From an uncultured Muribaculaceae bacterium (GTDB taxonomy: Bacteria; Bacteroidota; Bacteroidia; Bacteroidales; Muribaculaceae), in contig CAZVMM010000009.1 in the NCBI GenBank assembly GCA_964628205.1, positions 2,226 through 66,225 on the forward strand: a DNA stretch of 64,000 nucleotides. Direction: 5' to 3'. Of this stretch, positions 6,163 through 63,584 are shown piece by piece. The position numbers were made by a program, and so were the translations under genes. The stretch's first letter is position 1. Each line of letters starts with the position of its first letter. The notes under the pieces were generated by a model, which saw only the letters and a list, made by a program, of their open reading frames with translations, searched no databases and had not been told where the DNA came from.

Positions 6163-6202
6163 TATCGGGCAAATTCCGTTAGCCTGCTAACCGTTATACA
6201 TC

Positions 6203-6242: not shown

Positions 6243-6302
6243 TTAGAGAGAAAAAATATTACAGTTTGCGATTTTTAAATGGTCTTCACTTGTTATTTCC
6301 AT

Positions 6303-6320
6303 TATTTTTGATTAATTTTG
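6303..6320 (+). promoter_or_regulatory. two tandem -7 boxes (TATTTTTG, TAATTTTG) upstream of the TolB-like/amidase pair
   Basis: Exact TAnnTTTG matches at 6303..6310 and 6313..6320, 82-92 nt upstream of ATG 6402. Confidence 0.45.
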
Positions 6321-6401
6321 CTGCATTCTATTACTCGCCGGATATTAATAGTAGTTTTATATGACCAATTTTGTTTAACTTTAATCATTAACCTTTTTAT
6401 T

Positions 6402-7298
6402 ATGATGAGAAAAATACTATTCGCATTGGCGTTAGGTTTCTCGTTGAGTGCAATGGGACAGGTACTGACCGTATTGTCTGTTGACAAGGTCAATCTGCCA
6501 GAGCGCGCTACCGTAGCGGCAATCAGCCCGCAAGGCGATTATCTGCTGTTGACAAGCGCGACCAACCGTGGCCTAACCTGGTTCGACCTAACTACAAGCA
6601 AGACCCGCGAGCTGACCACCGCATCCAGCGCCGGGCACAACGTCAAAATCTCACCAGACGGCCAAACGGTCATCTATCGTGAGAGCACAATTAATGATAA
6701 GCACTTGAGGTATTCAACTCTCAAGAGCCTGAATTTGGAATCCGGGACCAGCCAAGTGCTTGTTAAGCCCACACGTGACCTGCAGGGTTATGATGTGGGT
6801 GCGACGAGCGCCGGCATTGTCAACAAGGGCAAGTACAGCAAGAAGTCCACAGGCAAAGACAAAGCTGAGAATCAGCCCGTATTGTCCATCGTTAAGGGCC
6901 AGTTGATGATCACAATCGATGGAAAGACACGAGACTTATCCCCCAATGGACATGGATTCAGCTACATGTGGCCATCCCTGTCACCCGATGGCAATAAGGT
7001 GCTCTTCTATCAGGCTGCTCACGGAGCATACGTCTGCAATCTTGACGGCAGTGGCGTCTGCAAAGTGGGCCAGATGCGCTCACCAGTGTGGTATGACAAC
7101 AACACGATCGTCGGCATGATGGATCAGGACGACGGAGAGTTCATCTATGCTTCGACCATTGTTGCTGCCACCCTCGACGGCAAGTCGCAGGTACTTACCG
7201 ACGGCACCACAATAGCCATGTACCCGCATGCCTGTGCCGGCAAAATCGTCTTCAGCACCCCTGCAGGCGAAGCATTTATTATTAATGTGACTAAATGA
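6402..7298 (+). CDS. secreted TolB-like (PD40/WD40-like) beta-propeller protein
   Basis: The ORF track starts at 6318. ATG 6402 gives the signal peptide MMRKILFALALGFSLSAMGQ. PD40-like SPDG repeats are present (ISPDGQTVIY, LSPDGNKVLFY). The stop overlaps the next start (ATGA). Confidence 0.7.
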   Translation: MMRKILFALALGFSLSAMGQVLTVLSVDKVNLPERATVAAISPQGDYLLLTSATNRGLTWFDLTTSKTRELTTASSAGHNVKISPDGQTVIYRESTINDKHLRYSTLKSLNLESGTSQVLVKPTRDLQGYDVGATSAGIVNKGKYSKKSTGKDKAENQPVLSIVKGQLMITIDGKTRDLSPNGHGFSYMWPSLSPDGNKVLFYQAAHGAYVCNLDGSGVCKVGQMRSPVWYDNNTIVGMMDQDDGEFIYASTIVAATLDGKSQVLTDGTTIAMYPHACAGKIVFSTPAGEAFIINVTK

Positions 7299-39882: not shown

Positions 39883-42800
39883 CTCTTCTGTTACGGGTAA
39901 CGGTGGGTTGGTCTATCGCGTCATTGCTGGTGGAGTTGCTGCCGTCTGTTGGGTTCGCAATCATCTCGTCGGTCGCTTGGATGGCATCGAGGGCACTCTC
40001 CTGTAGCTTGAGGGCTGCCTTACGGGCCTTCTCGAGGGAGTCGCGCAGCAAGTATTCGCGTGAGTGCTTGAACCTGAATAGATGTTTCAGGTTATTGAGT
40101 TTGTGCTTGAGCACGTAGGCAATGCCAGTCTCGGTCACCTGGCCCTCGAGCACGTTTTCGTAGCCAGCATGACGGTACAGCTTCAGGTACCTGTTGCCCT
40201 TGTCATTGAGGAAGTATTCCAGCGAAACGTCATTAAACAAGTTGCTGGCAATATCCTCATCTTCGCGCACCTCAGTGCTGTATTCACCACCCACCACAAT
40301 CTTGAAGCGGTCGTTGAACAAGGACTTAGCCAAGCGATAACTGTAACTCGTCTCCGTTCCGCTGAGTGACCTCTGATACTGATTAATGCCGAATGACAGG
40401 TCGATACCTGGCAGTGTCTGAGCAGCCCAAGCGTTGAGTTTGGATTGCAGGAACGAGAACAGGGCGGCGGAGGCCGATAGGTTGTTGATGTTGCCCATGC
40501 TGTTGGTTCCAGAGTAGGTGTTATACAGCAACAGGTTGATGGCCGCCTGAGAGCGCTGGTTGTCGCTCATCGACTGGAGTTCGTTCTCTACTGCCATGTC
40601 GTTCTCGCACTTGAGGTCAAATCCCAAGTCGATGTTGTTGAGCGTACCCCCCACATTAGCGTCGATGAGGAATTCCACGGGGCGTGTTCCCTCGTCCTGG
40701 CTGGTGACACTGGTCTTGAGTCTCTCGGTGCCGTTGAGTTTGAGCTGAGGATTGAGCATGTCACCACTCCAGGTGATGCTGCTGCCGCTAGTGATGTTGA
40801 AGTTCTTCTGTGCGATCAGCGGCGGGCTGTAACGCAGATTGCCACTGGAAATCACGTAAGAGCCCGTCAGGTTATCACGTCCAGCGAAATCGATAGAGTA
40901 CTTGAGTCGGCCGCTACCATCTATTGAGGCGCGGTTCTGGCCATCCTCTGAAAGATAAACATTCACTTTAGCGCCCTCATTGACCTGGATATTGACCAAA
41001 ATGTCGGTAGCGCTGGCTCCACTTGCGGTTACCAGAACGGTGGGTGCGCTAGTGGTGTTATTGAAGTCGGTGAAGGTCACCATATTTTCGTCGACCGTGT
41101 TCGTCAGCTGGGTTATCTCATCCTTCATCACATAAGTGATGTTGGAACCGTTCAGCAGCGTGGCGTTAGCGCGTACGCTCATCATGTTACCATAGCTCTT
41201 GACCGTGGCATCGATGTCAGCAAGTCCCTTGCCGAACAACTCTGTGTAGTCATCCTGCTTGCTCTCCATGAACTGCACTTCTCGGCCACGGGCTTTGAGG
41301 TCGATAACCATATTGTTCATATCACGCAGGTCCACAATGCCGTTAACGACAACGGGGCTGAGGTTGGAACCAGTCAATCTGTAATCGTTAAACATGATGA
41401 CATTGCCGTCGATGGGGATGCGGTCGCCAGCCAACTTGAGCGAGCTGCCGTATCGTGGCAGATTGACTGCTGCCGAATCGGCAACCAGATAGCCATTGAC
41501 CTGAGGATTGTCGGTCGTGCCTGTTATCGACACATTGCCTACTGCGTAGCCATCGAGCCAAATGTAGTTACCGGGGATAAAGGCATTGGCACGCTCGAGC
41601 GGGAAGCGGTTGAAGGCGGCATTGAGCTTCAGGGGGGAATCGGCCGTCGCGTCATTGAGCGACCCCCTCAGGGTTACTGAAGGCTTGCCATCAAGGATCA
41701 GGTCGGCCGACAAGGTCGTTGTGGCCGTGACGGGATCCAGGTCGAAGTCGGCGTTGAGCGTCACGTCGCCCTCATACTTGCCGTCGAAATAGAAGTCCTT
41801 GATGTCGATAACACCATCGCCATCGGCATTTGTTCCATCCCAGTTCATGTCGATGTTGGCATTGACCGTGCCACTGGTGCGGTCAAGCATTGGCATGATA
41901 CGTGTCCATTCCTCCAGGCGCAAGTTATCGATATTGAGCAGTATGTTCTCAGTGCTGTCGCCAGGGATGCGGGTCGTGAGCAGCTTGACGCTGCTGCTGT
42001 CGCTGCTCAGGGTAAGGTCAGCATCTACCATTCGTCGGCGATAATCCACGTTGACGTGGTTATCTTCGTTGAAGGTCCAATTCCGATATCCAATGACGGG
42101 GTCCTTGCCAAACATGCGCATCTTCACCTCGCCATCAGTCAAGTGGGCATTGATGCCCAAGCGGTAACCGGTTTCCTGCTTGATATTCTGCTGATGGAGC
42201 ATGAAGTCGATAGCCTGCCCCTTGATGCCGCCATCGACGGTTACCTGGGCAAACTCATCCCATGTGCCAGGGCGGTTGCCCATGTGTGCAGTGAAAGCGA
42301 GGTATTTGTTATTCAGCTCCTGGGCCTTGATGGTGATGGAGTCGATGGTGGTTTCTCCAGCACTGATGCCCAGGGCCCTGCCATTGAGCACAAAGGTGGT
42401 GTCGCGACTCATCTCGCAGCTCACATGACGGAAATCCACCTCCTGCTGCTGCAAGTATCGCTGAACGATACCATCAGCCCCCATGTGCATATCAAGGTCA
42501 AACCTCGGCATGGGTTCCTTGAGGCGCTCGACATCAATCCAGCGGGCCTCGTATTGCCGCTTCACCTCGTCCAGCGTGTTCTGGAAGTCTGTGATCAGGG
42601 TCATCACGGGACTCGGTGAGTTCAGATGGACGTAATTGTCCTCGTTTTCGACCGTAAGGCAGGTAAACCACGGAGTGCTATGGAGCGAAGCCCTGGCATC
42701 ATCAGCCACAATAAGGCTGCTATCCAGGCGCCAATCGATATCCTTCAGGGTCAAATCGGCAATCCATTCCTGGGTGCGGAGGTTGATGTCGCCCTCGGCA

Positions 42801-44797
42801 TGCAGGCGTGTGGAACCGTCACACTGGCCGTCATACATCCCCAAGCGCTTCAAGTCCAGGTCTCGCACGTTGCCGTCGGCCGTGAACACGTAGTGGTCGT
42901 TGCAAATCGTGCCGTGGGCATTGGCATCAAAATCACAGCCACGGTTAGCGCTCTGGGCATACACGTCGGCGTATCCACCGCGCAGCTTGCCTCGGGCCTT
43001 GATATTTCCAAACTGGGTGCCGTTGTAGCGAACGTGAGCCAGGTTGACGGTAGCATCGGTCCAGGTGGAGCCGCAATCGGTGAAGTCAAAGCCATGACCA
43101 CGCGCGTTGACGCTGGCGGTGAGGTTTTTCACGTCATATTTTGGTAGGAACGACTTGACGGGGAAGTTATTGAAGCTAGCATCCACGTCATAGTTCTCGT
43201 TGCAGACGTCATAGTAGCCATCGCCCCGCATCGATCCCCCACCCGTCGAGACGCGCAGGTTGCGGGCCACCCATCGGCAGCCCTCCTTGTTGATTTTACC
43301 GCTGAGCTTCATCGGCGGGAGTTTCACGTCATCAAGACCCAGCATCTTGTTGAGCACGCTGGGGTCACGCAGGTCGACTTCGGTGTCGAGGTCAGCCTTC
43401 ATGCGATCCATGTCGGTGGGATTGTAGATGGTGCCCTTGCCCTTGACGCGGCCCAAGCCAGGTACATCGGCATCGAGCGACTGGATATCGACGCGCTTGT
43501 CGTTACCTCGGGCTTTGGCCTTGATGCGCACGGGCTTGTTGTGCGGAATGTCCTTAAGGGCTTTGCGGGCCTCGGGAACCAGTTTTTCGACCTCGTTCAG
43601 ATCAATTTTGCTGTCGGTATCGATGGTGGCCTTGCCGTTGGGCTTGCCATCGAGCATATCCTGGTCGACATGGGCATCAAGCTTGATGTCGCTGCCCTTG
43701 GTCTTGAGCTTCATGTCGTTGAGGTCCAATCCGTTATTGTTCTTGTTGACGGTACCGCTGGCATCCTTAACCTGCAGGCCGCTGCGTTCCTTGCCGCTGA
43801 GGTGCTTGACGGGCACCTTGAGGTGGTCGCCATCCATCTCGAAGTTGTCGACCGCCGCATTCACGTCATCGACCTCGATATTTTTGTGATCAAGCGTTGT
43901 GCCGGGTTTATTGGGTTTGTGTCCGGTCTCGGAATATTTGCCCTTGCTGTCAGTCAGACGCACCTTGTCGGCCTTGACCTTCCAGGGCTTATCGTCGCCC
44001 TCGCCAGCAGGAGCCTCCTTGGGCATCGGGTGGTCCTTGCGGTACTGCTTAGCATCTTTTTCGCTAGGATACTGGTAATCCACATCGGCTTTATCGACAT
44101 CGAGTTCGCCCACGTCCACCGTCTTATCGCCGGTATCCACCTTCACGTTCTTGGCTTCGGCATGGCCCACCTTAGCATCAAGTTTGTCGACGGTGGGTTT
44201 CATGTCCATCTTGAAATCCACATCGTCGGCGGTGACCTTGTTCGCGTTGACCTTCCATGGCTTACTAGGCTTCTCGTTGGGGTCGGGTTTCTTTTTCTCG
44301 GGCTTGTAGCTCATTTTGGCCTTACCGCCCCTGAGCGAGGCATTGCCCACGTCGACCTTATTGTTATTGAGGTCCACGTTAGCCGCATCCACCTTGGCCT
44401 CGTCGACATCTACATCCAAGTCCATCGACCCGTCCTCGGTCTTGATCTGGCTCTTGGCGCCCTTGAGCGAGACGTTGTCGGCTTCCACTTTTTTGTCCAG
44501 CAGAGGTTTAGGCTTCACGTTAGCCTTTACCTCATCGGCCTTGAAGAGGGTGTCGCCATTCTGGTCAATGACCTGCACGTCGGTAGCGCTCACGTCGAGC
44601 GGGAAACCGACCCTGACATCCCCCACGCTGATGTCCATGCCCGTCTTTTTGCTGGCATACTCAGCAGCCAAATCTGCGGCCTTGTTTTGGACCCAAGGGA
44701 TATAGGCGGCAAAGGGCAGCGCCGCCACCACGCCCAGCAGACCGGTGCCCACCCAGGCAGCGATCTTGGAGAACATATTTCCCTTTTTACCAAACAT
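39863..44797 (-). CDS. tamB: translocation and assembly module protein TamB (DUF490/AsmA-like)
   Basis: 1644 aa with an N-terminal TM anchor (IAAWVGTGLLGVVAALPFAAYI), a long beta-rich body and a DUF490-like C-terminus. Paired with the Omp85 gene. Confidence 0.85.
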   Translation of the reverse strand: MFGKKGNMFSKIAAWVGTGLLGVVAALPFAAYIPWVQNKAADLAAEYASKKTGMDISVGDVRVGFPLDVSATDVQVIDQNGDTLFKADEVKANVKPKPLLDKKVEADNVSLKGAKSQIKTEDGSMDLDVDVDEAKVDAANVDLNNNKVDVGNASLRGGKAKMSYKPEKKKPDPNEKPSKPWKVNANKVTADDVDFKMDMKPTVDKLDAKVGHAEAKNVKVDTGDKTVDVGELDVDKADVDYQYPSEKDAKQYRKDHPMPKEAPAGEGDDKPWKVKADKVRLTDSKGKYSETGHKPNKPGTTLDHKNIEVDDVNAAVDNFEMDGDHLKVPVKHLSGKERSGLQVKDASGTVNKNNNGLDLNDMKLKTKGSDIKLDAHVDQDMLDGKPNGKATIDTDSKIDLNEVEKLVPEARKALKDIPHNKPVRIKAKARGNDKRVDIQSLDADVPGLGRVKGKGTIYNPTDMDRMKADLDTEVDLRDPSVLNKMLGLDDVKLPPMKLSGKINKEGCRWVARNLRVSTGGGSMRGDGYYDVCNENYDVDASFNNFPVKSFLPKYDVKNLTASVNARGHGFDFTDCGSTWTDATVNLAHVRYNGTQFGNIKARGKLRGGYADVYAQSANRGCDFDANAHGTICNDHYVFTADGNVRDLDLKRLGMYDGQCDGSTRLHAEGDINLRTQEWIADLTLKDIDWRLDSSLIVADDARASLHSTPWFTCLTVENEDNYVHLNSPSPVMTLITDFQNTLDEVKRQYEARWIDVERLKEPMPRFDLDMHMGADGIVQRYLQQQEVDFRHVSCEMSRDTTFVLNGRALGISAGETTIDSITIKAQELNNKYLAFTAHMGNRPGTWDEFAQVTVDGGIKGQAIDFMLHQQNIKQETGYRLGINAHLTDGEVKMRMFGKDPVIGYRNWTFNEDNHVNVDYRRRMVDADLTLSSDSSSVKLLTTRIPGDSTENILLNIDNLRLEEWTRIMPMLDRTSGTVNANIDMNWDGTNADGDGVIDIKDFYFDGKYEGDVTLNADFDLDPVTATTTLSADLILDGKPSVTLRGSLNDATADSPLKLNAAFNRFPLERANAFIPGNYIWLDGYAVGNVSITGTTDNPQVNGYLVADSAAVNLPRYGSSLKLAGDRIPIDGNVIMFNDYRLTGSNLSPVVVNGIVDLRDMNNMVIDLKARGREVQFMESKQDDYTELFGKGLADIDATVKSYGNMMSVRANATLLNGSNITYVMKDEITQLTNTVDENMVTFTDFNNTTSAPTVLVTASGASATDILVNIQVNEGAKVNVYLSEDGQNRASIDGSGRLKYSIDFAGRDNLTGSYVISSGNLRYSPPLIAQKNFNITSGSSITWSGDMLNPQLKLNGTERLKTSVTSQDEGTRPVEFLIDANVGGTLNNIDLGFDLKCENDMAVENELQSMSDNQRSQAAINLLLYNTYSGTNSMGNINNLSASAALFSFLQSKLNAWAAQTLPGIDLSFGINQYQRSLSGTETSYSYRLAKSLFNDRFKIVVGGEYSTEVREDEDIASNLFNDVSLEYFLNDKGNRYLKLYRHAGYENVLEGQVTETGIAYVLKHKLNNLKHLFRFKHSREYLLRDSLEKARKAALKLQESALDAIQATDEMIANPTDGSNSTSNDAIDQPTVTRNRRDESEQH

Positions 44798-53465: not shown

Positions 53466-55295
53466 TTAACGATGGGCGGCAATGCGCCAGATGGTGCCCT
53501 CGATGAGCGAGCAGTAGACGTCGCCAGTCGTTGGATCCACTTCAAAGCCGTTGACCTCGCTGGTACCCAGGCGATAGGTATATTCCAGCTGATGGGTCTT
53601 GGCGTTCACGACCGCCAGCATGCCACGGCGTGAGCCGCAGTAGATCAAGCCATCATGCTCGAGGATGATGCAGGGGGCGTGCTCATAGCCGAAGCCCAAA
53701 TCGACCTGCCACAAGAACTGATATTGCTCCCCAGTGCTCATGGCCACGAGCGTGCCGTCCATGGTCTTGGCATAGGCCACCTCACCGTCAGCGCTGCGGC
53801 CCAGGCTCTCTCGCACCTTGTTCTCGTTCTTCACGCGCCACAGTTGGGCGCCACTGTGGCGGTCGATGGCGGTCGTGTAGCGGTCAGGGGCGACGATGAC
53901 CACACGATCGGGCGTGACGACGGGCACCACATTGCCGGGGCTGTAGAGTCGAGCGGTTCGGCCATTGTCCCACTGCCATTTCATGGTCCCCGTTCGATGG
54001 TCGAGGCATCGCAGCCGAGTGTCCCACGCGCCAAAGATAACATCACTGCCAGCGATGACAGGCGCTGCCTGACAATAGTTGCCGATGCTATCGAAATGCC
54101 ACAACAGACGATGCCGCTTCACATCCCACGCCTGGAACGTTTTGTAACCGCCCTGGTACAAGATACCGTCACGGACCACACCGTCGGCAACATAGGGGCC
54201 ATCGGCCTGAAACTGCCACTGGGGCTTGCCGGTCTTCTTATCGAGCCAGATGAGGCGCTTGTCGCTCGTGGGCAGCACCACATACCGGCCGTCCACTGCG
54301 GGACGCGAAAACAGCATGGCACCAGTCTTGTACTGCCAGCGCACCTGGCCCGTGACCTTGTCCACCGCTTTGCAATAGCCCAGCGAATTGCCGTAGTACA
54401 GATTCTTGCCGTCCACACCTACGCGGGTAAAGATGGACGCATTGTCGGCCACAACACGCTGAATGGTGACACCGCCAGGCACCGCGGGAGTCTCCTGAAC
54501 GCAGGGGCTGTCGTGATAATCAAGATTGATGCGATAGGAGAACATCACCTCGGGGTCTTTCCCGATCACCTTATTAAATACATATATCCACTGACGGTCT
54601 AGGTCGATGGTCATCAGGGTGTAACCATAGTCGCCACCGCCCATGTCCAGGGCCCGCACAATCACGCCGTTGATGCCGTCGGTCTCATAGAGACGCCAGC
54701 GGTGATAGTGTCCGCACTGATGGGTGACCACGGGATACTTCTTGAGCACATCGACATAGGCGCGGTAATTGTCCAAATCATCGAGAATGGGATAATGGTT
54801 CACGCTGAGCACCCGCATGCCAGGCCCCACCATGACGTTAAGCGTGCTGTCGAGCCACAGCAGGTCTTCCTGCTTGATGTGCCCGTCACCCATTTTCATG
54901 AACGGGCCGCAATTCATTCCCACGACCACCAGGCTATCGATTGTGAACACAAATCGGTCGCTGCCCCACAGGTCATTGAAGGTTTTGCAAGCGCTCTGGC
55001 TCCAGTTGTTCTCGTGATTGCCAGGAATAACATACAGGGGATGGCAGACGCCATCGAGGATGCCCTTTACATTACGCAACTGCTCATCACTACCCTCATC
55101 GGTGAGGTCGCCCGTCATGAGCACCGCATCGACATCTGTAGCATTGATCTCGGCCACGGCGTCTCGCAGTTTGGCCTCGTTGGTATTGCCGGGATTGACA
55201 TGGATATCGCTGAGGATAGCCAATCGGACCACCCCACCCTGCATGGCCAGCGACAGCGTGAGCACGATGGCCAGTAAAGATATCATACGTTTCAT
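53466..55295 (-). CDS. secreted calcineurin-like metallophosphoesterase fused to a PQQ/BamB-like beta-propeller
   Basis: 609 aa with signal peptide MKRMISLLAIVLTLSLAMQ. All five phosphoesterase motifs are present (SDIH, TGDL, GNHEN, NHYP, CGHYH). Followed by repeated ...G..RWQ/ WQF/ LWHF/ KWQW propeller blades. Confidence 0.85.
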   Translation of the reverse strand: MKRMISLLAIVLTLSLAMQGGVVRLAILSDIHVNPGNTNEAKLRDAVAEINATDVDAVLMTGDLTDEGSDEQLRNVKGILDGVCHPLYVIPGNHENNWSQSACKTFNDLWGSDRFVFTIDSLVVVGMNCGPFMKMGDGHIKQEDLLWLDSTLNVMVGPGMRVLSVNHYPILDDLDNYRAYVDVLKKYPVVTHQCGHYHRWRLYETDGINGVIVRALDMGGGDYGYTLMTIDLDRQWIYVFNKVIGKDPEVMFSYRINLDYHDSPCVQETPAVPGGVTIQRVVADNASIFTRVGVDGKNLYYGNSLGYCKAVDKVTGQVRWQYKTGAMLFSRPAVDGRYVVLPTSDKRLIWLDKKTGKPQWQFQADGPYVADGVVRDGILYQGGYKTFQAWDVKRHRLLWHFDSIGNYCQAAPVIAGSDVIFGAWDTRLRCLDHRTGTMKWQWDNGRTARLYSPGNVVPVVTPDRVVIVAPDRYTTAIDRHSGAQLWRVKNENKVRESLGRSADGEVAYAKTMDGTLVAMSTGEQYQFLWQVDLGFGYEHAPCIILEHDGLIYCGSRRGMLAVVNAKTHQLEYTYRLGTSEVNGFEVDPTTGDVYCSLIEGTIWRIAAHR

Positions 55296-55324: not shown

Positions 55325-56485
55325 TTAAAGTTTCTCGACGACATCATTTTCTCCACACGGCATCGTGATGGTGCTGTTGTAGAGCGGGAAGAGCGCGTTC
55401 ACCTGATAGGTGGTGCGCTGTTGCTCCAAGGGGATAAACACGCTGACCTTCCCCTTGCTGTCGGTTCGGGTCTTTACGCCTCCCACCTGGATTGGAGAGT
55501 TGGGGATGAAGGATTCGGTCTCACGGTCCCATAAACCGAAACTCACGTTGCCATATACCTGAACGTCACGATAAATGTTCACGTTCATGTCGCGAGACAG
55601 CTCCATCATCGTGTCAATCGGCATAAAATCAGGGCAGTTGACCGTCACGTGGACCGAGTGATTCAAGAAATGCTGCGGAATGTTGGTGAAAATGGCCGCA
55701 TCGTCGAGCGAGACGATGGTGTCGGTCTTAGACTCATTATCCAGTTCCAGCATGACTACGGCATCGCGCAGCGGCGGCAACTCATTGTTGTGGTAAGAGG
55801 CCTCCCGCAGGCGCAGGGTCGCGTCGACAGGCCTGAAATGGTACCAAGCGCCGAATATCGCCATCACAACCGCTAGCAATCCCAGAATAGAGAAGATGAG
55901 TTGCCTCAATAACTGCCGCTTGTGGCGCTGCCAGATGGAATCAAACTCGACATCTAGCAGTTTGGATACCAGCTGGACGTAAGCCCGCTCGCGGTTAATC
56001 CAAGCCAACTTGTAATTCTTCTCGTTAACATTGGCTCCCAAAATTTCTTGCAGGCCTAGCCGCTCGGTGACAGGATGGAAACACTCCGTGTCTGGGTCTC
56101 CACTATGCGGAGTGCCGTCAACAATGAAGAAATGGATGTTTTCGGTACGCCCCAAACTGTGGAAAAACTCAATCTCCTTGCCCACCCACTCGGACTTGGC
56201 CGAATTGGGCGAACAGATGACGATCAGGTTTCTTGAAGCCATAAGGCGCTGCTTCAGCTCATCGCTCAGTCCGCCGGGCTGTATGTCGGTGGGCGCGAAG
56301 AAGACGGGGCGGATAGGGGTGCGCTTCCATCCGCGCTGGTTACACATTGTAGCCGGCATGCGGTAGTGCTCCAGCTTGCGCTGCAACCTCTTGCCCCACT
56401 GGGTGTCCCTGGAGTTGTAACTGATGAAGGCAAAATACTTGAACTCATGCCCAGATGTGATATGGCCTTGTTCCTTCTCAATCAT
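55325..56485 (-). CDS. single-pass membrane TIR-domain protein (cytoplasmic TIR, periplasmic beta-sandwich-like C-terminal domain)
   Basis: 386 aa. TIR start FKYFAFISYNSRD. SPNSAKSEWVGKEIEFF matches the SxxSxWxxxE motif (E104, codon 56174..56176). TM LIFSILGLLAVVMAIFGAWY (55841..55900) is preceded by the K/R-rich WQRHKRQLLRQ. Confidence 0.85.
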   Translation of the reverse strand: MIEKEQGHITSGHEFKYFAFISYNSRDTQWGKRLQRKLEHYRMPATMCNQRGWKRTPIRPVFFAPTDIQPGGLSDELKQRLMASRNLIVICSPNSAKSEWVGKEIEFFHSLGRTENIHFFIVDGTPHSGDPDTECFHPVTERLGLQEILGANVNEKNYKLAWINRERAYVQLVSKLLDVEFDSIWQRHKRQLLRQLIFSILGLLAVVMAIFGAWYHFRPVDATLRLREASYHNNELPPLRDAVVMLELDNESKTDTIVSLDDAAIFTNIPQHFLNHSVHVTVNCPDFMPIDTMMELSRDMNVNIYRDVQVYGNVSFGLWDRETESFIPNSPIQVGGVKTRTDSKGKVSVFIPLEQQRTTYQVNALFPLYNSTITMPCGENDVVEKL

Positions 56486-56504: not shown

Positions 56505-58016
56505 TTAAAGCGACATCTGTTTCCAGTCGTCGTTAGTATAAGATGTGAAGGTCATCGGGGTCTGGCTTTTGCCGAGAGGCAAAGTGCGGGCCACATTTTT
56601 GACATTGTTGTTGATATCCTTGGCCAGCTTGCCTAACGTGACCATGCCTTGGGTCTCCTGCAACTCTTTGAGGAGATAATAGGTGAAGAGGCCGTGCCCC
56701 TCTTCAGGATAGTTCTGCGCCGTTTCATTACCATGAGTTGCCGCCAGGACAATCATGTTACCCACGGTGGGTTTGGCATCCTGTGCCTCGACCTCAACTG
56801 CCCGCTCGACCACGAGCGACTCGTTATCACGATTGACCCCGCTGAAGCAGGCATCAAGAAAGACCGTGACGTTGGCAAATCCCAATCGGCCCAACTTGTC
56901 ATAAAACTCATCGAGGGCAATACCGTGGTTAGGCTTGGAGCCCTTAACATCAGTAGGCAGCAAGTAGGACTTGTTGTTGTCCTGAATATCGGGCACGCCA
57001 TGCCCAGCATAGAAGACGACCAGTTTCTTGAGACGGCGGTCAGGCACTTCGTTACACCAGTCACCAAGCAATTCCTCGAGGATGATGTGCTTAGTGGCAT
57101 CGAGAGAGACCATGATATTGGAAGCGGGGATACCGAGCGTCTTCTTGCAGTACTCGGCAAAAACGGTGGCATCGTTTTGGGCATAGGGCACAGCTGCCAC
57201 GTGGCGATAGTTCTCGTTACCGATGATCAGGGCATAGGTATCATTGCGTACGACAAGAGGTTCGGGGATTTCAATATCGACGGCCGACACACGCTCCTGC
57301 ATCAGCGCCGGACTGGATTTCTTGAGAAACAGCGCGACGGATTCCTGACTCAAGCCATACTCAGCACAATTCTCGGTGTTGATGTTGCGGGGCAGATTAC
57401 GTATCTCTCCCTTGTAATAGATGTGCTTGGCCCGACCGTCCTCCATGACCTCGGTGGCGAAAACGGCTTTGCCCAACATGGCGTTATTTCCCACTTCGAT
57501 CACGTTGAGGTTGGTACAGGAGAGGAAGGCCATGTCCTCGACACGCGTCAGGCTGGGAATGCTGACCGACCGCAGCGACGAGCAATTGGCAAAGGCGACC
57601 GTGGCGATACGCTTCACATAAGGCGGCATGGAGAAATTGAAGAGGTTGCGGCAATTCAGGAAAGCGCCCCACCCGATCTCATTGATCATCGCGTATTGGA
57701 TTTCAACTGTGTTCAGTTCTTCACAATTGGCAAATGCGCATGAACCGATAGTCCCGATGCCTACACCAATAACCACCTTACGGATGGCAAGATTTTGCTT
57801 GATCCACGGCGCACGGTTGCCGTCCAGGTCGTAGTCAGGCATGGATACCGCATTCTTCTTGGGGGCAAGACTACTTATATATAATGTGCGGCCATCAAAT
57901 GTCCACTCCACATCACCGTTGCATTTTCCCGAAGCGGCCTTGGTGTTCTGCGCCATTGCGGAAAGGAGGCACAACGAGCTGAACAGAATGGTTATTAGCA
58001 AACACTTTTTCATCAT
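56505..58016 (-). CDS. secreted BspA-type LRR (LRR_5) - caspase (peptidase C14) fusion protein
   Basis: 503 aa with signal peptide MMKKCLLITILFSSLCLLSAMAQ. LRR_5 repeats (IGSCAFANCEELNTVEI, IGWGAFLNCRNL, IATVAFANCSSLRSVSIP, EDMAFLSCTNLNVIEV). Caspase dyad contexts VVFYAGHG (H339, 57000..57002) and VFLDACFSG (C390, 56847..56849). Confidence 0.85.
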   Translation of the reverse strand: MMKKCLLITILFSSLCLLSAMAQNTKAASGKCNGDVEWTFDGRTLYISSLAPKKNAVSMPDYDLDGNRAPWIKQNLAIRKVVIGVGIGTIGSCAFANCEELNTVEIQYAMINEIGWGAFLNCRNLFNFSMPPYVKRIATVAFANCSSLRSVSIPSLTRVEDMAFLSCTNLNVIEVGNNAMLGKAVFATEVMEDGRAKHIYYKGEIRNLPRNINTENCAEYGLSQESVALFLKKSSPALMQERVSAVDIEIPEPLVVRNDTYALIIGNENYRHVAAVPYAQNDATVFAEYCKKTLGIPASNIMVSLDATKHIILEELLGDWCNEVPDRRLKKLVVFYAGHGVPDIQDNNKSYLLPTDVKGSKPNHGIALDEFYDKLGRLGFANVTVFLDACFSGVNRDNESLVVERAVEVEAQDAKPTVGNMIVLAATHGNETAQNYPEEGHGLFTYYLLKELQETQGMVTLGKLAKDINNNVKNVARTLPLGKSQTPMTFTSYTNDDWKQMSL

Positions 58017-58027
58017 GCTGGTAATGT

Positions 58028-58885
58028 TTAGAACCTGAATTGCAGGTACACACGACCTGTCTTCTGCTTCATTTTCATCTTGCCGGTGTCCAAGTCATCG
58101 TCCAGGTAAGTGTAATTCAGCTTACCATCGTTGCGGAACTCGTATCCGATGCCGACAAAATTCCATGTCAGATTGCCGCCAAAAGACGTGTACAGGCCAT
58201 GGCCCAGAGCCTTGCCATCAGAAACCTCGCCCTTGTCGACCATCGCTTCACTTATCATCGACAGCTGAACCGTATATCCCACATGGAAGTAGAGTTGCAG
58301 CCTGATATTGTCGGTTCCCCACCGCTCTAGTGAGGTGAAAGGATAGAAAGTGAGCGACGGGCCCACCATCATGCCATAGTCGATGGTCTTCTTCTTGTTA
58401 TGCCAGGGCATGCAACCGATAGAGGATTCTTCGCTATTCTTATAAGACGCAGGGGCGGCCGTTTCCTTATACTGATTGAAATTCAGATCCAGCCAGGTGT
58501 AATCCAGTCCCAGGAACAACACATTGCCGAGCGGGTTCTTGTGGAAATTGAAGGTATGTCCCCACTGCAGGCCAAGTCCCCACTGATTCTGGAACTCATT
58601 GCTGAACGCACCCGAAACTGACGGGAATTCATCAGACGACAGCTTGGTCGTATTGTAACTGATGTTCAGGTATGTGTTTTTACTCCAGATGGAGCGCAAG
58701 CTCGCCATGTAGTCATTCTCCTTCATGGCCTTTCCCTCTTGGGCGATAGTCTCAGCCAGCGTAACCACTCGTGTTGTGTCATCACCGGCAGCGTTGTTTA
58801 CTGAGATGGGAGCCGAAATGCCTTCGTTGGCCGAGATGGCCAGTGCACAAAAGACTGCAATTGCTGAAAAAAAGAATCGTTTCAT
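58028..58885 (-). CDS. outer-membrane beta-barrel protein
   Basis: 285 aa with signal peptide MKRFFFSAIAVFCALAISA. Alternating amphipathic strands (WGLGLQWGHTFNF, IRLQLYFHVGYTVQL, GGNLTWNFVGIGYEF). C-terminal aromatic ...RVYLQFRF. Confidence 0.75.
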   Translation of the reverse strand: MKRFFFSAIAVFCALAISANEGISAPISVNNAAGDDTTRVVTLAETIAQEGKAMKENDYMASLRSIWSKNTYLNISYNTTKLSSDEFPSVSGAFSNEFQNQWGLGLQWGHTFNFHKNPLGNVLFLGLDYTWLDLNFNQYKETAAPASYKNSEESSIGCMPWHNKKKTIDYGMMVGPSLTFYPFTSLERWGTDNIRLQLYFHVGYTVQLSMISEAMVDKGEVSDGKALGHGLYTSFGGNLTWNFVGIGYEFRNDGKLNYTYLDDDLDTGKMKMKQKTGRVYLQFRF

Positions 58886-58908: not shown

Positions 58909-61179
58909 TTAATGATTTAGTGATTGTTTTATCTGTTCGACTGCTTGACGGGCATTATCAGGAATGATGCCGATGGCCTCGAATTGCCTGAAGTCGTCAA
59001 GGAAAGTATCTCTCAATTCTTGTTTATACTCTTGGTAGATCGACATGGCCTGTTCTCGCTCTCCCATGAACAACAACGCCGCAGCCAGATTGGCCCGGAT
59101 GAATGTCTTGGTGCTGTCGATATCCAGCCCGGCACGGGCATATTCAGCGGCCTTGATGAAATTACCCGTCAGCAGGGCATGATTTGACAGGTTGCCGTAG
59201 GAGCGAGCCACATGCGAATTGTAATCCCGGGGCGACAGGCGGGCGAGTTCCTGGTTAATGTCCAGCTCCTCTTGGTAATACCTACCGGCATCGTCCCATT
59301 GGCGAAGCTTATCACAGGCGGTGGCCATGTTGCGCAATAGCTTTGCCTTTTCAGGACGATACGTGTCGGGGTTCAAAATCTCAAGGGCCGAATAGGCATC
59401 CAGAGCGATGCCAAACAGTGTTTTGCTTTTTTCCATTTCATCATCCTGGTAACATCTAACACCCTGCTGATAAGCCCGATCGGCAATCAGTGGCAGATAA
59501 CGCACCGGATTTTCGTAGGCCAGCTGCTTGTATAACTCCAGAGACTCGATAAGAGCACGCTCCCCCTTTTCTGGATCGCTGGTAGCGAAATAGAGGACCG
59601 ACAGGTTGTTGAGGGCGGTTGCCATCATGGGAGCGTAATACTGAGAATCGGCCTCTGAGAGGTGGCGATAGACACCCAGCGACTCGTCAAGCAGGCTGAT
59701 GGCTTGCTCGATATTCAGGTCATTGCGGTAATAGAGCGTGGACAAATTGATGAGTGTTGCCGCGTAGTCGGCCAGATAGGCGCCACTATCAGCCTTGCCC
59801 AACTGCCGGTAGAGCGCCAGTGCCTTGCTGAACATCAGTTCGCTGTCATAGAAACGTCCGCCAGCGGCGCCATAGAGCAGAGCCAGATTATTGAATGTCG
59901 AGGCCACGGCTGGGCCATAAATCTCGGGCATTTCTTGACTGAGCGGCATATAGATGTCCAAGGCATCATTGTAGAGGCGCTCGATGGTGGACAAATCTCG
60001 CGACTCTCTGGAATAGAGCACCGCCAGATTGTTCAGCACCGAAGCCAGCAGAGGTTTGAAGGTCAAAGTGTCAGCCGAGGCCAGACGGCGGTATATGCCA
60101 ATGGCTTCATCGAATAAGGGTTCTGCCATCGACGGTTGTGCCGACTCGGAATAAAGCATGGCTATGTTGTTGAGTGTCCTGGCCAATAGCGGTTCATACC
60201 GCCCGGGGTCCGTCTGGGCCAGGCCACGGGATGCATCGATGGCTTTCCGGTAGTACTGCGCCGCCTTGTCGGCCAGTCCCCGCTGCTGCAGGTAACTGCC
60301 GGCATCGGCTTGCCACTGAGGATTCATGGCGTCTAAGCCGGCTCGTTTCTCGATGTAATATGTTGCGGAATCGTTCTCGTGTGCCAGAGCAAAACGCTGG
60401 AAAAAGCTGAAGCAGTCACGGGCGATGTCCTCGCGCTGGGTTTTCTCAACCATTTCGCTCTTTTCCACCATCTCGCGCGATATCACATTCGCTTCGTGGA
60501 GCTGATTGAGTTCATTGATGCGCTCATTCATGTCGCCCTTGGTCCTGAGCAGGGAGTCGGCACTTGCCAGATTTCCGTTCAAGATAAAATCGCCAACGCG
60601 CCGGTTGAAGTCATCGAGCATGTCATAATCGATGGTAGCATAGTATTCCGCCATTCTGCGCACCAGCATCGCGTTCTTGTCCTGCTGGTCATAAAGGTCC
60701 TGAATCTGCTGCAGATACTGCTGCTGAGAGACCTTGTTCTGCCTTTTCAGCTCATTGATTTCATTTTCCTTCCTATTCAGGTCACGGGTCATGGCTTTGT
60801 TGATCTGGCGCTGTGCGGCCAATTTGTCCTCAAGCAGCTGATCTGGCGTATCCATGACCAGGATGATGGGACTAGTCGAGTAGGTATAGACCTTGGGTGC
60901 CGCATCGGCGTCGACCAGCTGATATCCTTTTTTCCTGACAGACTCTATCTTGAAACTCTTTCCCGGAATCGGGAAGGAGAACGAGCCGTTGCGGTTCTCG
61001 ACAACGACACTGGTTCGTCCCTGGATGTGCACGGTAGCGCCAGTGAGTCCCTGACCTGACTGGTGCCTGCCAGCGACCAGGCGGCCACGTGTTTTCACCA
61101 CCCCGTGCTGGGTCTGTGCCAATGCCCAAGCGCCCACAAATACGCAGATCAGAAACAATATCAGTTTTTTCATATTCAT
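58909..61179 (-). CDS. secreted CarboxypepD_reg-like + coiled-coil + multi-TPR (TPR_12-type) protein
   Basis: 756 aa with signal peptide MNMKKLILFLICVFVGAWALAQ. N-terminal beta-sandwich (GATVHIQGRTSVVVENRNGSFSFPIPGKSFKIESVRKKGYQ). A Q/E-rich coiled coil. At least 8 kinesin-light-chain-like TPRs (ALNNLAVLY..A..IY..L pattern repeated). Confidence 0.85.
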   Translation of the reverse strand: MNMKKLILFLICVFVGAWALAQTQHGVVKTRGRLVAGRHQSGQGLTGATVHIQGRTSVVVENRNGSFSFPIPGKSFKIESVRKKGYQLVDADAAPKVYTYSTSPIILVMDTPDQLLEDKLAAQRQINKAMTRDLNRKENEINELKRQNKVSQQQYLQQIQDLYDQQDKNAMLVRRMAEYYATIDYDMLDDFNRRVGDFILNGNLASADSLLRTKGDMNERINELNQLHEANVISREMVEKSEMVEKTQREDIARDCFSFFQRFALAHENDSATYYIEKRAGLDAMNPQWQADAGSYLQQRGLADKAAQYYRKAIDASRGLAQTDPGRYEPLLARTLNNIAMLYSESAQPSMAEPLFDEAIGIYRRLASADTLTFKPLLASVLNNLAVLYSRESRDLSTIERLYNDALDIYMPLSQEMPEIYGPAVASTFNNLALLYGAAGGRFYDSELMFSKALALYRQLGKADSGAYLADYAATLINLSTLYYRNDLNIEQAISLLDESLGVYRHLSEADSQYYAPMMATALNNLSVLYFATSDPEKGERALIESLELYKQLAYENPVRYLPLIADRAYQQGVRCYQDDEMEKSKTLFGIALDAYSALEILNPDTYRPEKAKLLRNMATACDKLRQWDDAGRYYQEELDINQELARLSPRDYNSHVARSYGNLSNHALLTGNFIKAAEYARAGLDIDSTKTFIRANLAAALLFMGEREQAMSIYQEYKQELRDTFLDDFRQFEAIGIIPDNARQAVEQIKQSLNH

Positions 61180-61195: not shown

Positions 61196-63535
61196 CTAAA
61201 TTATGCCCAAAGAAACATCCACAATATTATAATCATAACTCTTGACCCGCGTCGAGAGTTCTTGCCAAGGTTTAAGGCAACCGTGAAGCATTCTCACCTC
61301 ATTCTTGTAGTCCACGTCGCCATGGTCACGGTAGCCCAGGATCTCGTGCGATGCCACCCAGCGCAGGTGTTCGGTCTGGGCAATCACGTCGAGGACACGT
61401 GTCACTGCCTGGTCGGGGGATGATTCTTGCCACAGATAAGTTGTCTGGTTCACCTCCCTGGACAAGACATGGCTTGTCAGCAGGGCAGCGCGATCATCAC
61501 CGAGGGCCAGCGCCGCCAGCTGCTGCTTGGTCAGCTTGTGGAAACAGTTCTCCATGTTCTGCCGCTGCATGCGCCTTAACTTGGTTATCCCCGTAAGCGT
61601 GGGGCTATACCCCGGATACTCGTCATCGTTGAGCTGCATCAGCCTGCGTTGCTGCTCATCCCAGCTCTCTATTTTCTCTCCAGCAGCGCCTTTCAGGTTA
61701 CGGATGGACTCCTCGTACTTCTCCATAAAAGCGCGCGCCTCGCGGTTGATTGTGTCGCCAACTACACTATCCCAAGTAAAGACCCCACTCAAGGAGCCAA
61801 AACAAGTAATCGGTGCATTGAGGTGCTCGGTCTTGGTAATCGTGTGCTGATGCTGGTGCCCGCCATCGCTGCAGCATTCGGCCGCCCACAAGCGGTTATA
61901 GTGCTCGGCGATGCGTTTCAGATGACCATCATGGTCGCCACAGACGCGCACCAGAATGCGTAAGTGCCTCATGTCCTTACGGTAACGCACCGCCAGCCGC
62001 AGGATCCGCACCGCCAGCGACATGTTAGATTCATCATCATCGAGGGTTATGACAACATAGTTGAGCTTGTCGATGATCTTTTCCACATATTTATAAAAGG
62101 CCACGCTGCCCGTGTCCACGTCATGGAGCAAGATGTGCGTGTTGGCCTGCGACGGTTCTCCGTCAAGCGCTTCACGGCACACGATAGCAGGAGAATTGAA
62201 GGCAAACACCCCCGCATGGGTCATGATGTCCTTATCGACCACATCACAGTGGAAGGGGGCGCGTTGCACATTATCATCAGTGCTGCCGCTCTTGACAAAC
62301 GACCCAAACTCATAGAGAAAGCGTACTGAGTCATAGCCCACCTCGCCAAAGCCGACAACCAAGGCGTTGAAGGCCGACGAAACTGTCGCGTCGTGCTCGA
62401 CATCAACGTAGCTGACAGGGTGCAGGGTCACATCCTGCTTAAGCATCTCTACGCTGATATGTGACGGATCGACTACCCGAACCGTGCAACGCGCGTTATG
62501 CTGCTCATCCTCAATGACACGGTGCATGCTGTTGTAACGCGCCTTGCAGTACAGCGTGACAGGCACGGTAGCGTCACCCACGGTAACGTCCCGCTTCAGG
62601 CATTGCACTATCTTGATGTTGACATCGTCCTTGTCGGTGAGGACAAACATGTGCAAGCTCCCGGTGGTCTTGCGCCGAATGATCCGAGCGAGCTGGTTGA
62701 GGTTGAGCATACGCTTCAGCACATCACTGTATCCTAGGCCGTCCTGTAGCGAAAGCTGAGAGGCGTCAGCATAGGTACCTGTCGTCAGACAGTCGAGCTC
62801 GATCAGGCGCTCCAGGTCATTATCGCGCAGGGAGACAAAATTGAATAGCCGCTCCATGCCATTCTTGACACTGCCGGCATCGCCCTTGTGGTTGGTGCGG
62901 ACAATGATGATGCGGAACGCACCTTCGCGGCCACGGTAATGTTCCTTGATGCTTTGGGCGAGCAGATAGGTGGGTTCGTTCAATCCCCAAAACACAAAAG
63001 TGTCCCGCTTGCCCCCGAGCACGTAAGCCTCGAGAAACATCCTGAAAGCGGCAATGATGTTGTAACCGAAGTGTCTGATCACAAACATCAGAGTGATGAT
63101 CGCTGCCAAGAAGTGTGCCAGCGAGAAAAACAGCATAAAGAGCCAATTGTGGTGAAATGCAGATTGAATGGCCGCCGCATCGCTCTCCAAGAGGAACATT
63201 TCGGTGGAATGGATGATAGCCATCGGCACATTAGTGAGCAGGGACCACCGGCTATGATCGATGTACATGCCGACATCATAAACCACAAACCCTAACAGCC
63301 ATACGACAAAAAAAGAGGTGGTCAGCATCCGGCTGGCCAACCGTGACCAGCGATTATGTCGGCTGCGATAGAGTAAGAGCATCAACAGTATCCCCAAGAT
63401 GACTGCCACCACACCCAACAGACTGCTGCACCGGGCCATATCAATCAGGAACGGGTTTGCGCCATCAGTCTCGAGCTGCTCATGCGGCAGACATGCAAAC
63501 CAGTTGGCTATATTCAATAGAGGGGATAGACTCAT
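61196..63535 (-). CDS. polytopic inner-membrane protein with two Rossmann-like (TrkA-N-like) domains and a RyR-like C-terminal domain
   Basis: 779 aa with about four N-terminal hydrophobic helices (aa 38-155). GxGxxG at aa 395-400 (VVGFGEVG, 62336..62353). C-terminal IAQTEHLRWVASHEILGYRD...LKPWQELS...KSYDYNIVDV resembles the bacterial RyR domain (recollection, not searched). CDS confidence is high; domain calls are moderate. Confidence 0.75.
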   Translation of the reverse strand: MSLSPLLNIANWFACLPHEQLETDGANPFLIDMARCSSLLGVVAVILGILLMLLLYRSRHNRWSRLASRMLTTSFFVVWLLGFVVYDVGMYIDHSRWSLLTNVPMAIIHSTEMFLLESDAAAIQSAFHHNWLFMLFFSLAHFLAAIITLMFVIRHFGYNIIAAFRMFLEAYVLGGKRDTFVFWGLNEPTYLLAQSIKEHYRGREGAFRIIIVRTNHKGDAGSVKNGMERLFNFVSLRDNDLERLIELDCLTTGTYADASQLSLQDGLGYSDVLKRMLNLNQLARIIRRKTTGSLHMFVLTDKDDVNIKIVQCLKRDVTVGDATVPVTLYCKARYNSMHRVIEDEQHNARCTVRVVDPSHISVEMLKQDVTLHPVSYVDVEHDATVSSAFNALVVGFGEVGYDSVRFLYEFGSFVKSGSTDDNVQRAPFHCDVVDKDIMTHAGVFAFNSPAIVCREALDGEPSQANTHILLHDVDTGSVAFYKYVEKIIDKLNYVVITLDDDESNMSLAVRILRLAVRYRKDMRHLRILVRVCGDHDGHLKRIAEHYNRLWAAECCSDGGHQHQHTITKTEHLNAPITCFGSLSGVFTWDSVVGDTINREARAFMEKYEESIRNLKGAAGEKIESWDEQQRRLMQLNDDEYPGYSPTLTGITKLRRMQRQNMENCFHKLTKQQLAALALGDDRAALLTSHVLSREVNQTTYLWQESSPDQAVTRVLDVIAQTEHLRWVASHEILGYRDHGDVDYKNEVRMLHGCLKPWQELSTRVKSYDYNIVDVSLGII

Positions 63536-63576: not shown

Positions 63577-63584
63577 CAAATTTA
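63577..63584 (-). promoter_or_regulatory. -7 box TAAATTTG for the six-gene TIR/caspase operon
   Basis: CAAATTTA on the + strand, 42 nt upstream of ATG 63535. It is the only TAnnTTTG match I found in the right orientation in the 184-bp divergent intergenic region. Confidence 0.5.

Follow-up and report, generated by a model that had tools for sequence, protein, structure and literature searches.

Which compartment does a caspase-like protease serve when it carries an export signal, and with which partner does it work? The question is raised by a 64,000-nt stretch of the genome of an uncultured Muribaculaceae bacterium (contig CAZVMM010000009.1), referred to here in its full length as the window, in which an open reading frame (ORF) on the minus strand (56505..58016) encodes a 503-residue protein with a signal peptide, a leucine-rich repeat (LRR) domain, and a peptidase domain of family C14. 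To our knowledge, every characterized bacterial caspase-like protease is cytoplasmic, including those of type IV Thoeris, the CRISPR-linked PCaspase and Craspase, and the gasdermin activators. The ORF and the protein, first described in an initial annotation made from the sequence alone, agree with the translation, and the gene is confirmed to encode an exported caspase-like protease fused to an LRR domain, hereafter the LRR-caspase. On balance, we favor the reading that the protein would be a periplasmic, Arg/Lys-specific protease of the orthocaspase type, tethered to an outer membrane (OM) beta-barrel.

Both domains named in the initial annotation were recovered above their Pfam cutoffs: LRR_5 (PF13306) at residues 77 to 187 (E value, 1.3e-19; 70.8 bits; cutoff, 27.7) and Peptidase_C14 (PF00656) at residues 261 to 491 (E value, 9.7e-18; 65.1 bits; cutoff, 21.4). 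Neither score is plausibly due to chance. Four units of the AF(A/L)xC type can be read in the translation, and a profile of the family matches the solved LRR_5 surface proteins 4gt6 (E value, 3.9e-49) and 4fs7 (E value, 3.4e-45) in the PDB. In an AlphaFold2 (AF2) model built on 31 homologues (mean pLDDT, 87.1; pTM, 0.54), beta strands run across residues 28 to 207, and the C-terminal domain adopts the caspase fold that had been claimed for it. A Foldseek search of the PDB with this model placed Geobacter GSU0716 at the top, followed by MALT1, caspase-9, plant and yeast metacaspases, caspase-7, and caspase-8, all at a probability of 1.00 and with TM-scores on target length of up to 0.72. A single-sequence phmmer search with the C14 domain alone found no PDB relative, and a family profile was needed: the profile of orthologues and paralogues aligns the domain to the paracaspase domain of MALT1 (E value, 8.8e-6). 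Against the NCBIfam model for EACC1-associated caspases (NF047832), the LRR-caspase scores 67.1 bits, below the cutoff of 140.

Residue invariance was scored on an alignment of 31 diverse homologues, in which His339, Cys390, Asp282, and Asp388 never vary; these four residues, together with Arg396 and Arg405, are also invariant across more distant paralogues. The His/Cys dyad is intact, as the initial annotation had it, and the codon positions given there for the two residues follow by arithmetic on the translation. Residue counting on the profile alignment pairs Asp282 with D365 and Asp388 with D462 of MALT1, and it is these two residues that line the S1 pocket binding the P1 arginine in MALT1 structures. 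The YAGHG histidine and the LLDMC cysteine of MALT1, to which His339 and Cys390 align, we take to be H415 and C464 in MALT1 numbering. Since Asp282 and Asp388 coincide in the alignment with the S1 acids of MALT1, cleavage after Arg or Lys is predicted, and the LRR-caspase should be a metacaspase/paracaspase-like orthocaspase, not an Asp-specific caspase.

The same invariance bears on whether the protein is a protease at all. Pseudo-orthocaspases exist in bacteria (PMC6426788), and a pseudo-protease scaffold with no proteolytic role would be their equivalent here; the known pseudo-variants, however, have Tyr or Ser in place of the dyad, whereas His339, Cys390, and both S1 aspartates are invariant in the 31 orthologues and in the paralogues. 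This alternative was discarded on the invariant dyad and is extremely improbable. With the orthocaspases, metacaspases, and MALT1 (MEROPS C14B), the LRR-caspase shares the caspase-hemoglobinase fold, the His-Cys dyad in YAGHG and DAC motifs, and two acidic S1 residues. Its sequence similarity to the solved members is seen by family profile only, and it differs from them in its signal peptide, its N-terminal BspA-type LRR, and its obligatory pairing with an OM barrel gene. Judged from these sequence features, the protein is very probably an exported, catalytically competent protease of the C14B type. Its residues 396 to 420, just after the catalytic cysteine, are the lowest-confidence part of the protease domain (pLDDT, 52 to 54); we infer, and only infer, that this loop may be an autoprocessing linker of the p20/p10 type.

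The export signal claimed for the protein was borne out. The N terminus reads MMKK, then a hydrophobic core, then AMA|Q, and conservation of A22 and Q23 reaches 90% or more in the 31-sequence alignment. Signal peptide statistics were collected from 117 full-length homologues, of which 113 have a strongly hydrophobic h-region and 85 the strict AxA|Q-type pattern; the listed misses end in xAQ as well. A Gln at +1 is the signature of signal peptidase I substrates in Bacteroidetes (the Q-rule; PMC5837995). The signal peptide of the LRR-caspase fits a Sec/signal peptidase I substrate under this rule, its processing being predicted. A lipobox-like motif occurs in 4/117 homologues and not in the window protein. 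An NCBIfam scan, read at an E value of ≤0.01, gave two families only and no type IX secretion system (T9SS) tail family in the LRR-caspase, whose C terminus falls inside the caspase domain in the AF2 model. Since the protein has neither a lipobox nor a T9SS sorting domain, the periplasm is the best inference for its location. For the earlier description of the protein as "secreted," the word "exported" is therefore preferable.

These observations also bear on a reading in which the protease acts outward. BspA-type LRR_5 domains typify surface proteins, the solved structures matched best carry the annotation "cell surface protein," and the family is found in gut and rumen Bacteroidales; a gingipain-like protease on vesicles or the surface, using its LRR as an adhesin, could degrade host, dietary, or competitor proteins there. 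The predicted Arg/Lys specificity would be like that of the gingipains, which belong to clan CD and cut after Arg or Lys. However, with 4/117 lipoboxes and no T9SS C-terminal domain, the family has no known Bacteroidota route for surface export; strict pairing with a small barrel and operons with inner-membrane sensors are ill suited to a nutritional enzyme; and high conservation and near-constant gene pairing are unlike variable surface adhesins. We consider an outward-acting role improbable.

Export had been singled out as the unusual feature of this protein. That emphasis was too strong, although the characterized defense caspases ThsE and PCaspase do act on cytoplasmic proteins. Probable signal peptides on prokaryotic C14 proteins were flagged in a 2012 survey by Asplund-Samuelsson et al., in which 46 sequences have an N-terminal hydrophobic helix, probably a signal peptide, and 30 were classed as extracellular (PMC3501461). 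Related Bacteroidales loci hold several further exported C14 paralogues, with other N-terminal modules or none. In view of the survey and these paralogues, C14 export is not new in itself. The survey proteins share with the LRR-caspase a metacaspase domain behind an N-terminal hydrophobic helix, but "LRR" occurs 0 times in the survey text and no OM partner is described, whereas the LRR-caspase represents a very large Bacteroidales clade with a conserved context. Literature searches turned up no earlier description of the LRR_5-C14 fusion or of its gene context.

To place the protein within its family, homologues were collected at an E value of ≤1e-5, which gave 5,896 sequence clusters. The architecture was read on the 120 best of these, and LRR_5 plus Peptidase_C14 is common to all of them; nearly all are ∼490 to 530 residues long, with a few truncated to 385 to 460. 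The sole informative source name among the best clusters is "leucine-rich repeat protein" (NCBI). In a collection with one genome per species, relatives of the LRR-caspase were found at 532 places, and the closest species representatives are 68 to 69% identical to the window protein. The best 80 of the 532 loci were taken as the caspase-locus sample, and almost all are labeled as rumen or gut Bacteroidales (Muribaculaceae, Prevotella, Bacteroidaceae, Alloprevotella, and Paludibacteraceae). One locus (L033; CAZAWC010000134.1) has a typical row of DUF4384, barrel, LRR-caspase, LPP20-like, and C4 genes yet is titled "uncultured Staphylococcus sp.," probably a binning or labeling error in a public metagenome-assembled genome.

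The six window proteins were placed on the 80 loci with tblastn, and all ORFs of these loci were clustered as well. The barrel gene is conserved in 70/80 loci. In the subset of caspase loci that are orthologous and have enough upstream sequence (n = 66), it lies directly upstream of the LRR-caspase gene in 64, in the same orientation and separated from it by a median of 32.5 nt, and by tblastn the pairing holds even where barrel identity to the window protein drops to 24 to 30%. The AF2 model of the barrel protein (pLDDT, 86.5; pTM, 0.75) comprises a signal peptide, a disordered stretch, a helix at residues 43 to 67, and eight long strands, and Foldseek matched it to OmpX, OmpA, Ail, and OprG, the first three at E values of 1e-6 to 1e-5. 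The chain ends in QFRF, and a C-terminal Phe is usual in OM barrels. Pfam OMP_b-brl reached 21.6 bits on this protein, under the cutoff of 28.7. As modeled, the protein has the features of a small eight-stranded OM barrel of the OmpX/OmpA-N/Ail type.

The barrel is likely the functional partner of the LRR-caspase. Because an OM barrel is its one constant partner, the LRR-caspase probably works in the cell envelope and not in the cytoplasm. The initial annotation had proposed five co-encoded proteins as candidate substrates, which was too broad: only the barrel co-occurs across the family, in the 64/66 loci given above, whereas the TPR, TIR, and RyR proteins of the window are found in 10/66. 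In two sister loci (L097 and L098, ∼6087 to 6893), a barrel homologue of 45% identity lies between the RyR-membrane and TPR genes, beside a TIR gene and without an LRR-caspase gene, so the barrel can occur in such a backbone without the protease.

The remaining genes around the pair fall into two sets. The LRR-caspase and barrel genes accompany a TPR protein, a membrane TIR protein, and a RyR membrane protein, as in the window, in 10/66 loci; in 53/66, of the Prevotella/Bacteroidaceae type, they accompany a DUF4384 protein, a weakly LPP20-like protein, a CHASE2 membrane protein, and an exported protein of ∼615 residues (C4); and 3/66 have neither gene set. Gene order is shuffled inside each set (for example, in L035, L011, L016, and L036), which points to functional linkage rather than chance adjacency. 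We read the barrel and LRR-caspase genes as a self-contained two-gene cassette that plugs into at least two envelope backbones. The C4 protein (L062:2201-4045 and 17 others) has invariant YPYCDCEDRS, YYPGHLA, and CDPT motifs, in that order, and no Pfam, NCBIfam, or PDB match. Its invariant Cys, His, and Asp residues look like a transglutaminase/cysteine-peptidase triad, by motif. The C4 gene usually adjoins that of the CHASE2 membrane protein, which lacks an output domain. Profiles of the DUF4384 protein (C2) and of C4 gave no usable PDB match, and NCBIfam scans of the alternative-context proteins C2 to C5 gave nothing.

In the window, the LRR-caspase gene stands in a tight, co-directional row with genes for envelope proteins, the intergenic gaps being 11 to 29 nt, which supports the operon named at the outset. 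Its TIR protein, however, is not arranged as then described. The phrase "TIR ectodomain" put the TIR domain outside the cell, whereas the domain (residues 20 to 118) precedes the only hydrophobic helix (residues 191 to 218) of a protein that has no signal peptide; on these grounds the TIR domain is predicted to be cytoplasmic and the conserved, beta-rich C-terminal ∼170 residues periplasmic. No Pfam domain was found in that periplasmic region. Mean column identity in the TIR family is 76%, and the best PDB sequence match is the TIR domain of human TLR2 (E value, 7e-4). Glu104, in SEWVGKE104I (an SxWxxxE motif), is invariant in 11 TIR orthologues and occupies what we take to be the position of the catalytic Glu in TIR NADases.

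A TIR gene with a conserved Glu beside a gene for a caspase-like, probably Arg-specific protease is also the arrangement of type IV Thoeris (ThsB TIR plus ThsE), where a TIR-made nucleotide switches on an Arg-specific caspase-like protease that cleaves cytoplasmic proteins such as EF-Tu (bioRxiv 10.1101/2024.10.24.620036). By analogy, the TIR product would directly activate the LRR-caspase, and degradation of cell proteins would abort infection. The two window genes are adjacent, 19 nt apart, Glu104 is conserved in its SxWxxxE motif, and PADLOC returned weak ThsB-like and generic caspase matches; the known activation of an Arg-specific caspase-like protease by the TIR product of type IV Thoeris adds to the case (bioRxiv 10.1101/2024.10.24.620036). 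The compartments differ, however: the protease has a conserved signal peptide and is exported, whereas the TIR protein is membrane-anchored and predicted to face the cytoplasm. The protease carries an LRR, and domain scans revealed no separate ligand-binding domain. Nor are the two genes co-inherited, being mostly apart: a caspase match is present in 13 to 15 of 80 TIR loci, and 56/66 caspase loci have no gene of the TPR/TIR/RyR set nearby. The terms "signal peptide," "transmembrane," "periplasm," and "leucine-rich" are absent from the text of the Thoeris paper (bioRxiv 10.1101/2024.10.24.620036). On topology and co-occurrence, a direct Thoeris IV mechanism was set aside as very improbable.

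The co-occurrence figures come from a scan of metagenomes with the TIR alignment, which yielded 80 further loci (L081 to L160). The TIR gene is beside TPR proteins in 54 of these, and in rumen metagenomes it is nearly always beside one or several TPR paralogues, mostly without a caspase. A barrel is present in 13/80 and an LRR-caspase in 15/80, with both beside the TIR gene in 13/80. At one and the same syntenic site, with a permease upstream and a metallophosphoesterase downstream, loci L082, L085, and L089 have a RyR-membrane protein, a longer TPR protein, a TIR protein, and a small RyR protein and no cassette; L091, L092, and L099 have the same cassette-less gene set, with flanks that differ or end with the contig. 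In our reading, the TPR/TIR/RyR genes are a backbone to which an extracytoplasmic protease arm may be added, one such arm being exchangeable for another. Other proteases near genes for membrane-anchored TIR proteins are an exported TPR-CHAT protein (L125:3666-5903), a membrane-anchored trypsin-like protein (L116:11595-12908), and a PrsW intramembrane protease (L132:765-1472), and a sister locus encodes a protein with TIR, transmembrane, and FGE-sulfatase parts (L097:1989-3284).

Effector-type domains thus recur in the window and its sister loci, as they do in the conflict systems of multicellular bacteria described by Kaur et al. (2020, 2021): TIR, caspase, CHAT, trypsin, FGE-sulfatase, and TPR are listed by the Aravind group as typical of such systems (PMC8195603). 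Those systems are NTPase-centered (STAND, MoxR-vWA, and GTPases) and mostly cytoplasmic, whereas here no NTPase is seen and all components are exported or membrane-anchored. Text searches of both Kaur et al. papers found no exported LRR-caspase and no OM partner.

The favored reading, a barrel-tethered protease in the periplasm, would run as follows. The pre-protein would be exported via Sec and cut by signal peptidase I ahead of Gln23. The LRR would serve as a docking module that tethers the protease beneath the OM to the barrel or to another conserved envelope partner, the likeliest contact on the barrel being its periplasmic N-terminal helix or turns. The ligand gating put forward in the initial annotation is a hypothesis. 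Mean pairwise identity is 0.55 in the LRR, 0.69 in the p20-like part, and 0.58 in the p10-like part; with conservation of the LRR close to that of the protease, a conserved self partner is favored over a variable invader ligand. The protease would probably be kept as a zymogen and could be activated by clustering or by self-cleavage in loop 396 to 420, which carries the invariant Arg396 and Arg405, after which the active C14 domain, with its His339/Cys390 dyad and Asp282/Asp388 pocket, would cleave substrates at Arg or Lys in P1. The cassette of this genome is inserted into an operon for TPR, membrane TIR, and RyR membrane proteins; the likely targets here would be the TPR protein, which is exported, or the periplasmic part of the TIR protein, and an event in the outer envelope would be coupled to the cytoplasmic TIR domain and the RyR membrane protein. 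That the LRR-caspase cleaves the TIR or TPR proteins is, in our estimate, doubtful. Of the whole scheme, the analysis establishes the domain identities, the conserved residues, the predicted export signals, the fold of the barrel, and the linkage of the genes, whereas periplasmic location, P1 specificity, docking, zymogen activation, substrates, and trigger are proposals.

Several points weigh against this reading. The TIR/TPR backbone occurs without the cassette at the same site, so TIR function cannot depend on the LRR-caspase, and most cassettes have no TIR gene nearby, so the TIR and TPR proteins as substrates may be wrong or lineage-specific. The periplasmic location is deduced from signals in the sequence. 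With a pTM of 0.54, the position of the LRR relative to the protease domain is uncertain in the model. Arg396 and Arg405 could serve structure instead of cleavage. No family member has been studied by experiment, and literature searches found nothing on the LRR-caspase fusion, the cassette, or exported caspases of Bacteroidales.

The coordinates of the LRR-caspase, its parts, and the neighboring genes are collected in Table 1.

Table 1. Features of the LRR-caspase gene and its gene row, in window coordinates
Feature	Coordinates	Strand	Basis
Exported LRR-orthocaspase gene, 503 aa: signal peptide, BspA-type LRR, linker, C14 protease domain	56505..58016	-	Translation, Pfam, AF2
Signal peptide, residues 1-22 (MMKKCLLITILFSSLCLLSAMA), predicted signal peptidase I cleavage ahead of Q23	57951..58016	-	n-, h-, and c-regions; conservation
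BspA-type LRR domain with N-terminal cap, residues ~27-207	57396..57938	-	Pfam, profile vs PDB, AF2
Pfam LRR_5 core, residues 77-187	57456..57788	-	Pfam
Peptidase_C14 (caspase-fold) domain, residues 261-491	56544..57236	-	Pfam, Foldseek, profile vs MALT1
Asp282 codon (QNDA), predicted S1-pocket acid	57171..57173	-	Invariant; aligned to MALT1 D365
Catalytic His339 codon (YAGHG)	57000..57002	-	Invariant; aligned to MALT1 YAGHG
Asp388 codon, two residues ahead of Cys390, predicted S1-pocket acid	56853..56855	-	Invariant; aligned to MALT1 D462
Catalytic Cys390 codon (DACFSG)	56847..56849	-	Invariant; aligned to MALT1 LLDMC
Flexible loop after catalytic Cys, residues 396-420, candidate p20/p10-type autoprocessing linker	56757..56831	-	pLDDT 52-54, R396/R405
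OM 8-stranded beta-barrel gene, 285 aa, signal peptide, N-terminal helix 43-67, C-terminal Phe	58028..58885	-	AF2, Foldseek
Membrane-anchored TIR protein gene, 386 aa: TIR 20-118, Glu104, one membrane helix 191-218, ~170-aa beta-rich C-domain	55325..56485	-	Pfam TIR_2 and ThsB_TIR, transmembrane prediction
Exported TPR protein gene, 756 aa: signal peptide, weak CarboxypepD_reg-like N-domain, coiled coil, TPR_12/TPR_10 repeats	58909..61179	-	Pfam; hydrophobic segment 1-24
Membrane protein gene, 779 aa, first of row: hydrophobic segments 28-60, 66-93, 129-164, large soluble region ending in weak RyR match	61196..63535	-	Hydropathy, Pfam
TAAATTTG, match to Bacteroidetes -7 promoter motif TAnnTTTG, 42-49 nt upstream of the row's first ATG (candidate)	63577..63584	-	Sequence read; surrounding 16-mer unique
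Exported metallophosphoesterase + PQQ-like beta-propeller gene, 609 aa, downstream	53466..55295	-	Pfam

At the head of the row, the 779-residue RyR-membrane protein is multi-pass and has a GxGxxG-like stretch. Its RyR match reaches 20 to 21 bits, below the Pfam cutoff, and a comparison with the PDB gave a marginal RyR match only; the protein is conserved with the operon, including in the rearranged order of L035. A related family of ∼640 to 720 residues (D4) has a weak RCK-domain match. In relatives, a free 98-residue RyR-domain protein (Pfam E value, 9e-36) is encoded between the TIR and metallophosphoesterase genes (L001:11759-12055); the window lacks it. The candidate promoter element upstream of the row matches TAnnTTTG, the Bacteroides -7 promoter consensus. 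A scan for sigma-70 promoters and terminators found sites no more frequent than in shuffled sequence.

At the other end, the gene for the metallophosphoesterase-propeller protein lies 29 nt downstream of the TIR gene. Its product has weak NCBIfam matches to cyclic-nucleotide phosphodiesterases (SpdA and CpdA), and its propeller is PQQ/BamB-like. The protein is 75 to 84% identical in relatives; set beside the operon proteins, at 49 to 69%, its figure is 79 to 84%. Its gene is absent from the rearranged loci L004 to L006 and L035. It was considered as a component of the system and rejected: being far more conserved than the operon and lost in rearranged loci, it is probably a syntenic neighbor.

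Beyond the row, the window is a housekeeping region and not a defense island. It encodes GyrA, Lon, ribosomal protein S1, ComEC, glycogen synthase and phosphorylase, DnaK, an LptB-like ATPase, and a protein read as uridine kinase; domain scans of the window saw no mobile or defense genes, and PADLOC, run on the window, assigned no system to the caspase and ThsB-like matches mentioned above. The operon is syntenic in relatives. Elsewhere in the window (37555..44797, minus strand), adjoining genes for an Omp85/POTRA protein (775 residues) and a TamB/AsmA-family protein (1644 residues) form a TAM-type OM assembly pair. In searches of phage and plasmid collections with tblastn, no full-length copy of the LRR-caspase was found. 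Gut phage contigs (MT836667.1, OR338544.1, and 7 others) have BspA-type LRR segments 29 to 44% identical to residues ∼92 to 186, and none of these contigs has a caspase domain; in plasmids of other phyla, generic caspase domains only were matched.

Such a setting speaks for a more conventional role. In Prc-NlpI of Escherichia coli and CtpA-LbcA of Pseudomonas, a TPR adaptor hands cell wall or OM proteins to a periplasmic protease, and a comparable housekeeping pair here would have the LRR or the TPR protein present barrel or envelope proteins for routine turnover, with no immune or death role. Core housekeeping genes all around, vertical conservation of a syntenic locus, an LRR that is conserved and not diversifying, partners that are all envelope proteins (the exported TPR protein included), and the lack of full-length copies in the phage and plasmid collections all agree with it. 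There is a likeness to Prc-NlpI, CtpA-LbcA, and the DegS-RseA stress relay: the gene for a periplasmic protease stands with genes for a TPR protein and for a single-pass inner-membrane protein whose signaling domain is cytoplasmic. The resemblance is one of layout only, as those are serine proteases whereas the LRR-caspase is a cysteine protease of clan CD, with no sequence relationship between them. However, a TIR domain with a catalytic-type Glu and the CHAT, trypsin-like, and FGE-sulfatase proteins of sister loci make up a conflict-effector set (PMC8195603), and an essential housekeeping function would not be expected to come and go at a single syntenic site among relatives, as the cassette does. 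Routine turnover, a reading by analogy, is an unlikely role.

The tethered protease that we favor could also be extended in the opposite direction, although we regard the extension as unlikely: the cassette might form the outer end of an alarm pathway, so far undescribed, that spans the envelope of gut Bacteroidales. Phage entry, contact-dependent attack, or barrel damage at the OM would activate the LRR-protease, and cleavage of TPR proteins or of the TIR ectodomain would turn on the cytoplasmic TIR NADase and the RCK/RyR-type membrane protein. Such a pathway would amount to a "split Toll-like receptor" whose outer LRR and inner TIR domain are joined by proteolysis and not within one polypeptide. 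It would form a modular family with swappable arms (caspase, CHAT, trypsin-like, and PrsW) and an alternative CHASE2/DUF4384 backbone.

Dominant bacteria of the gut and rumen would have, in their periplasm, an apparently active caspase relative with predicted Arg/Lys specificity, tied to an OM barrel and, in some lineages, beside a membrane TIR protein. The LRR-caspase would thus be a concrete, envelope-located counterpart to the cytoplasmic caspase systems of bacteria. Even on a conservative view, a large protein family that lacks annotation is defined, whose partner is clear and whose catalytic residues can be tested. If the cassette turns out to be a sensor-protease, a class of signaling or defense at the level of the envelope would be opened in Bacteroidales, along with a bacterial case in which LRR, protease, and TIR elements act together from the two sides of a membrane.

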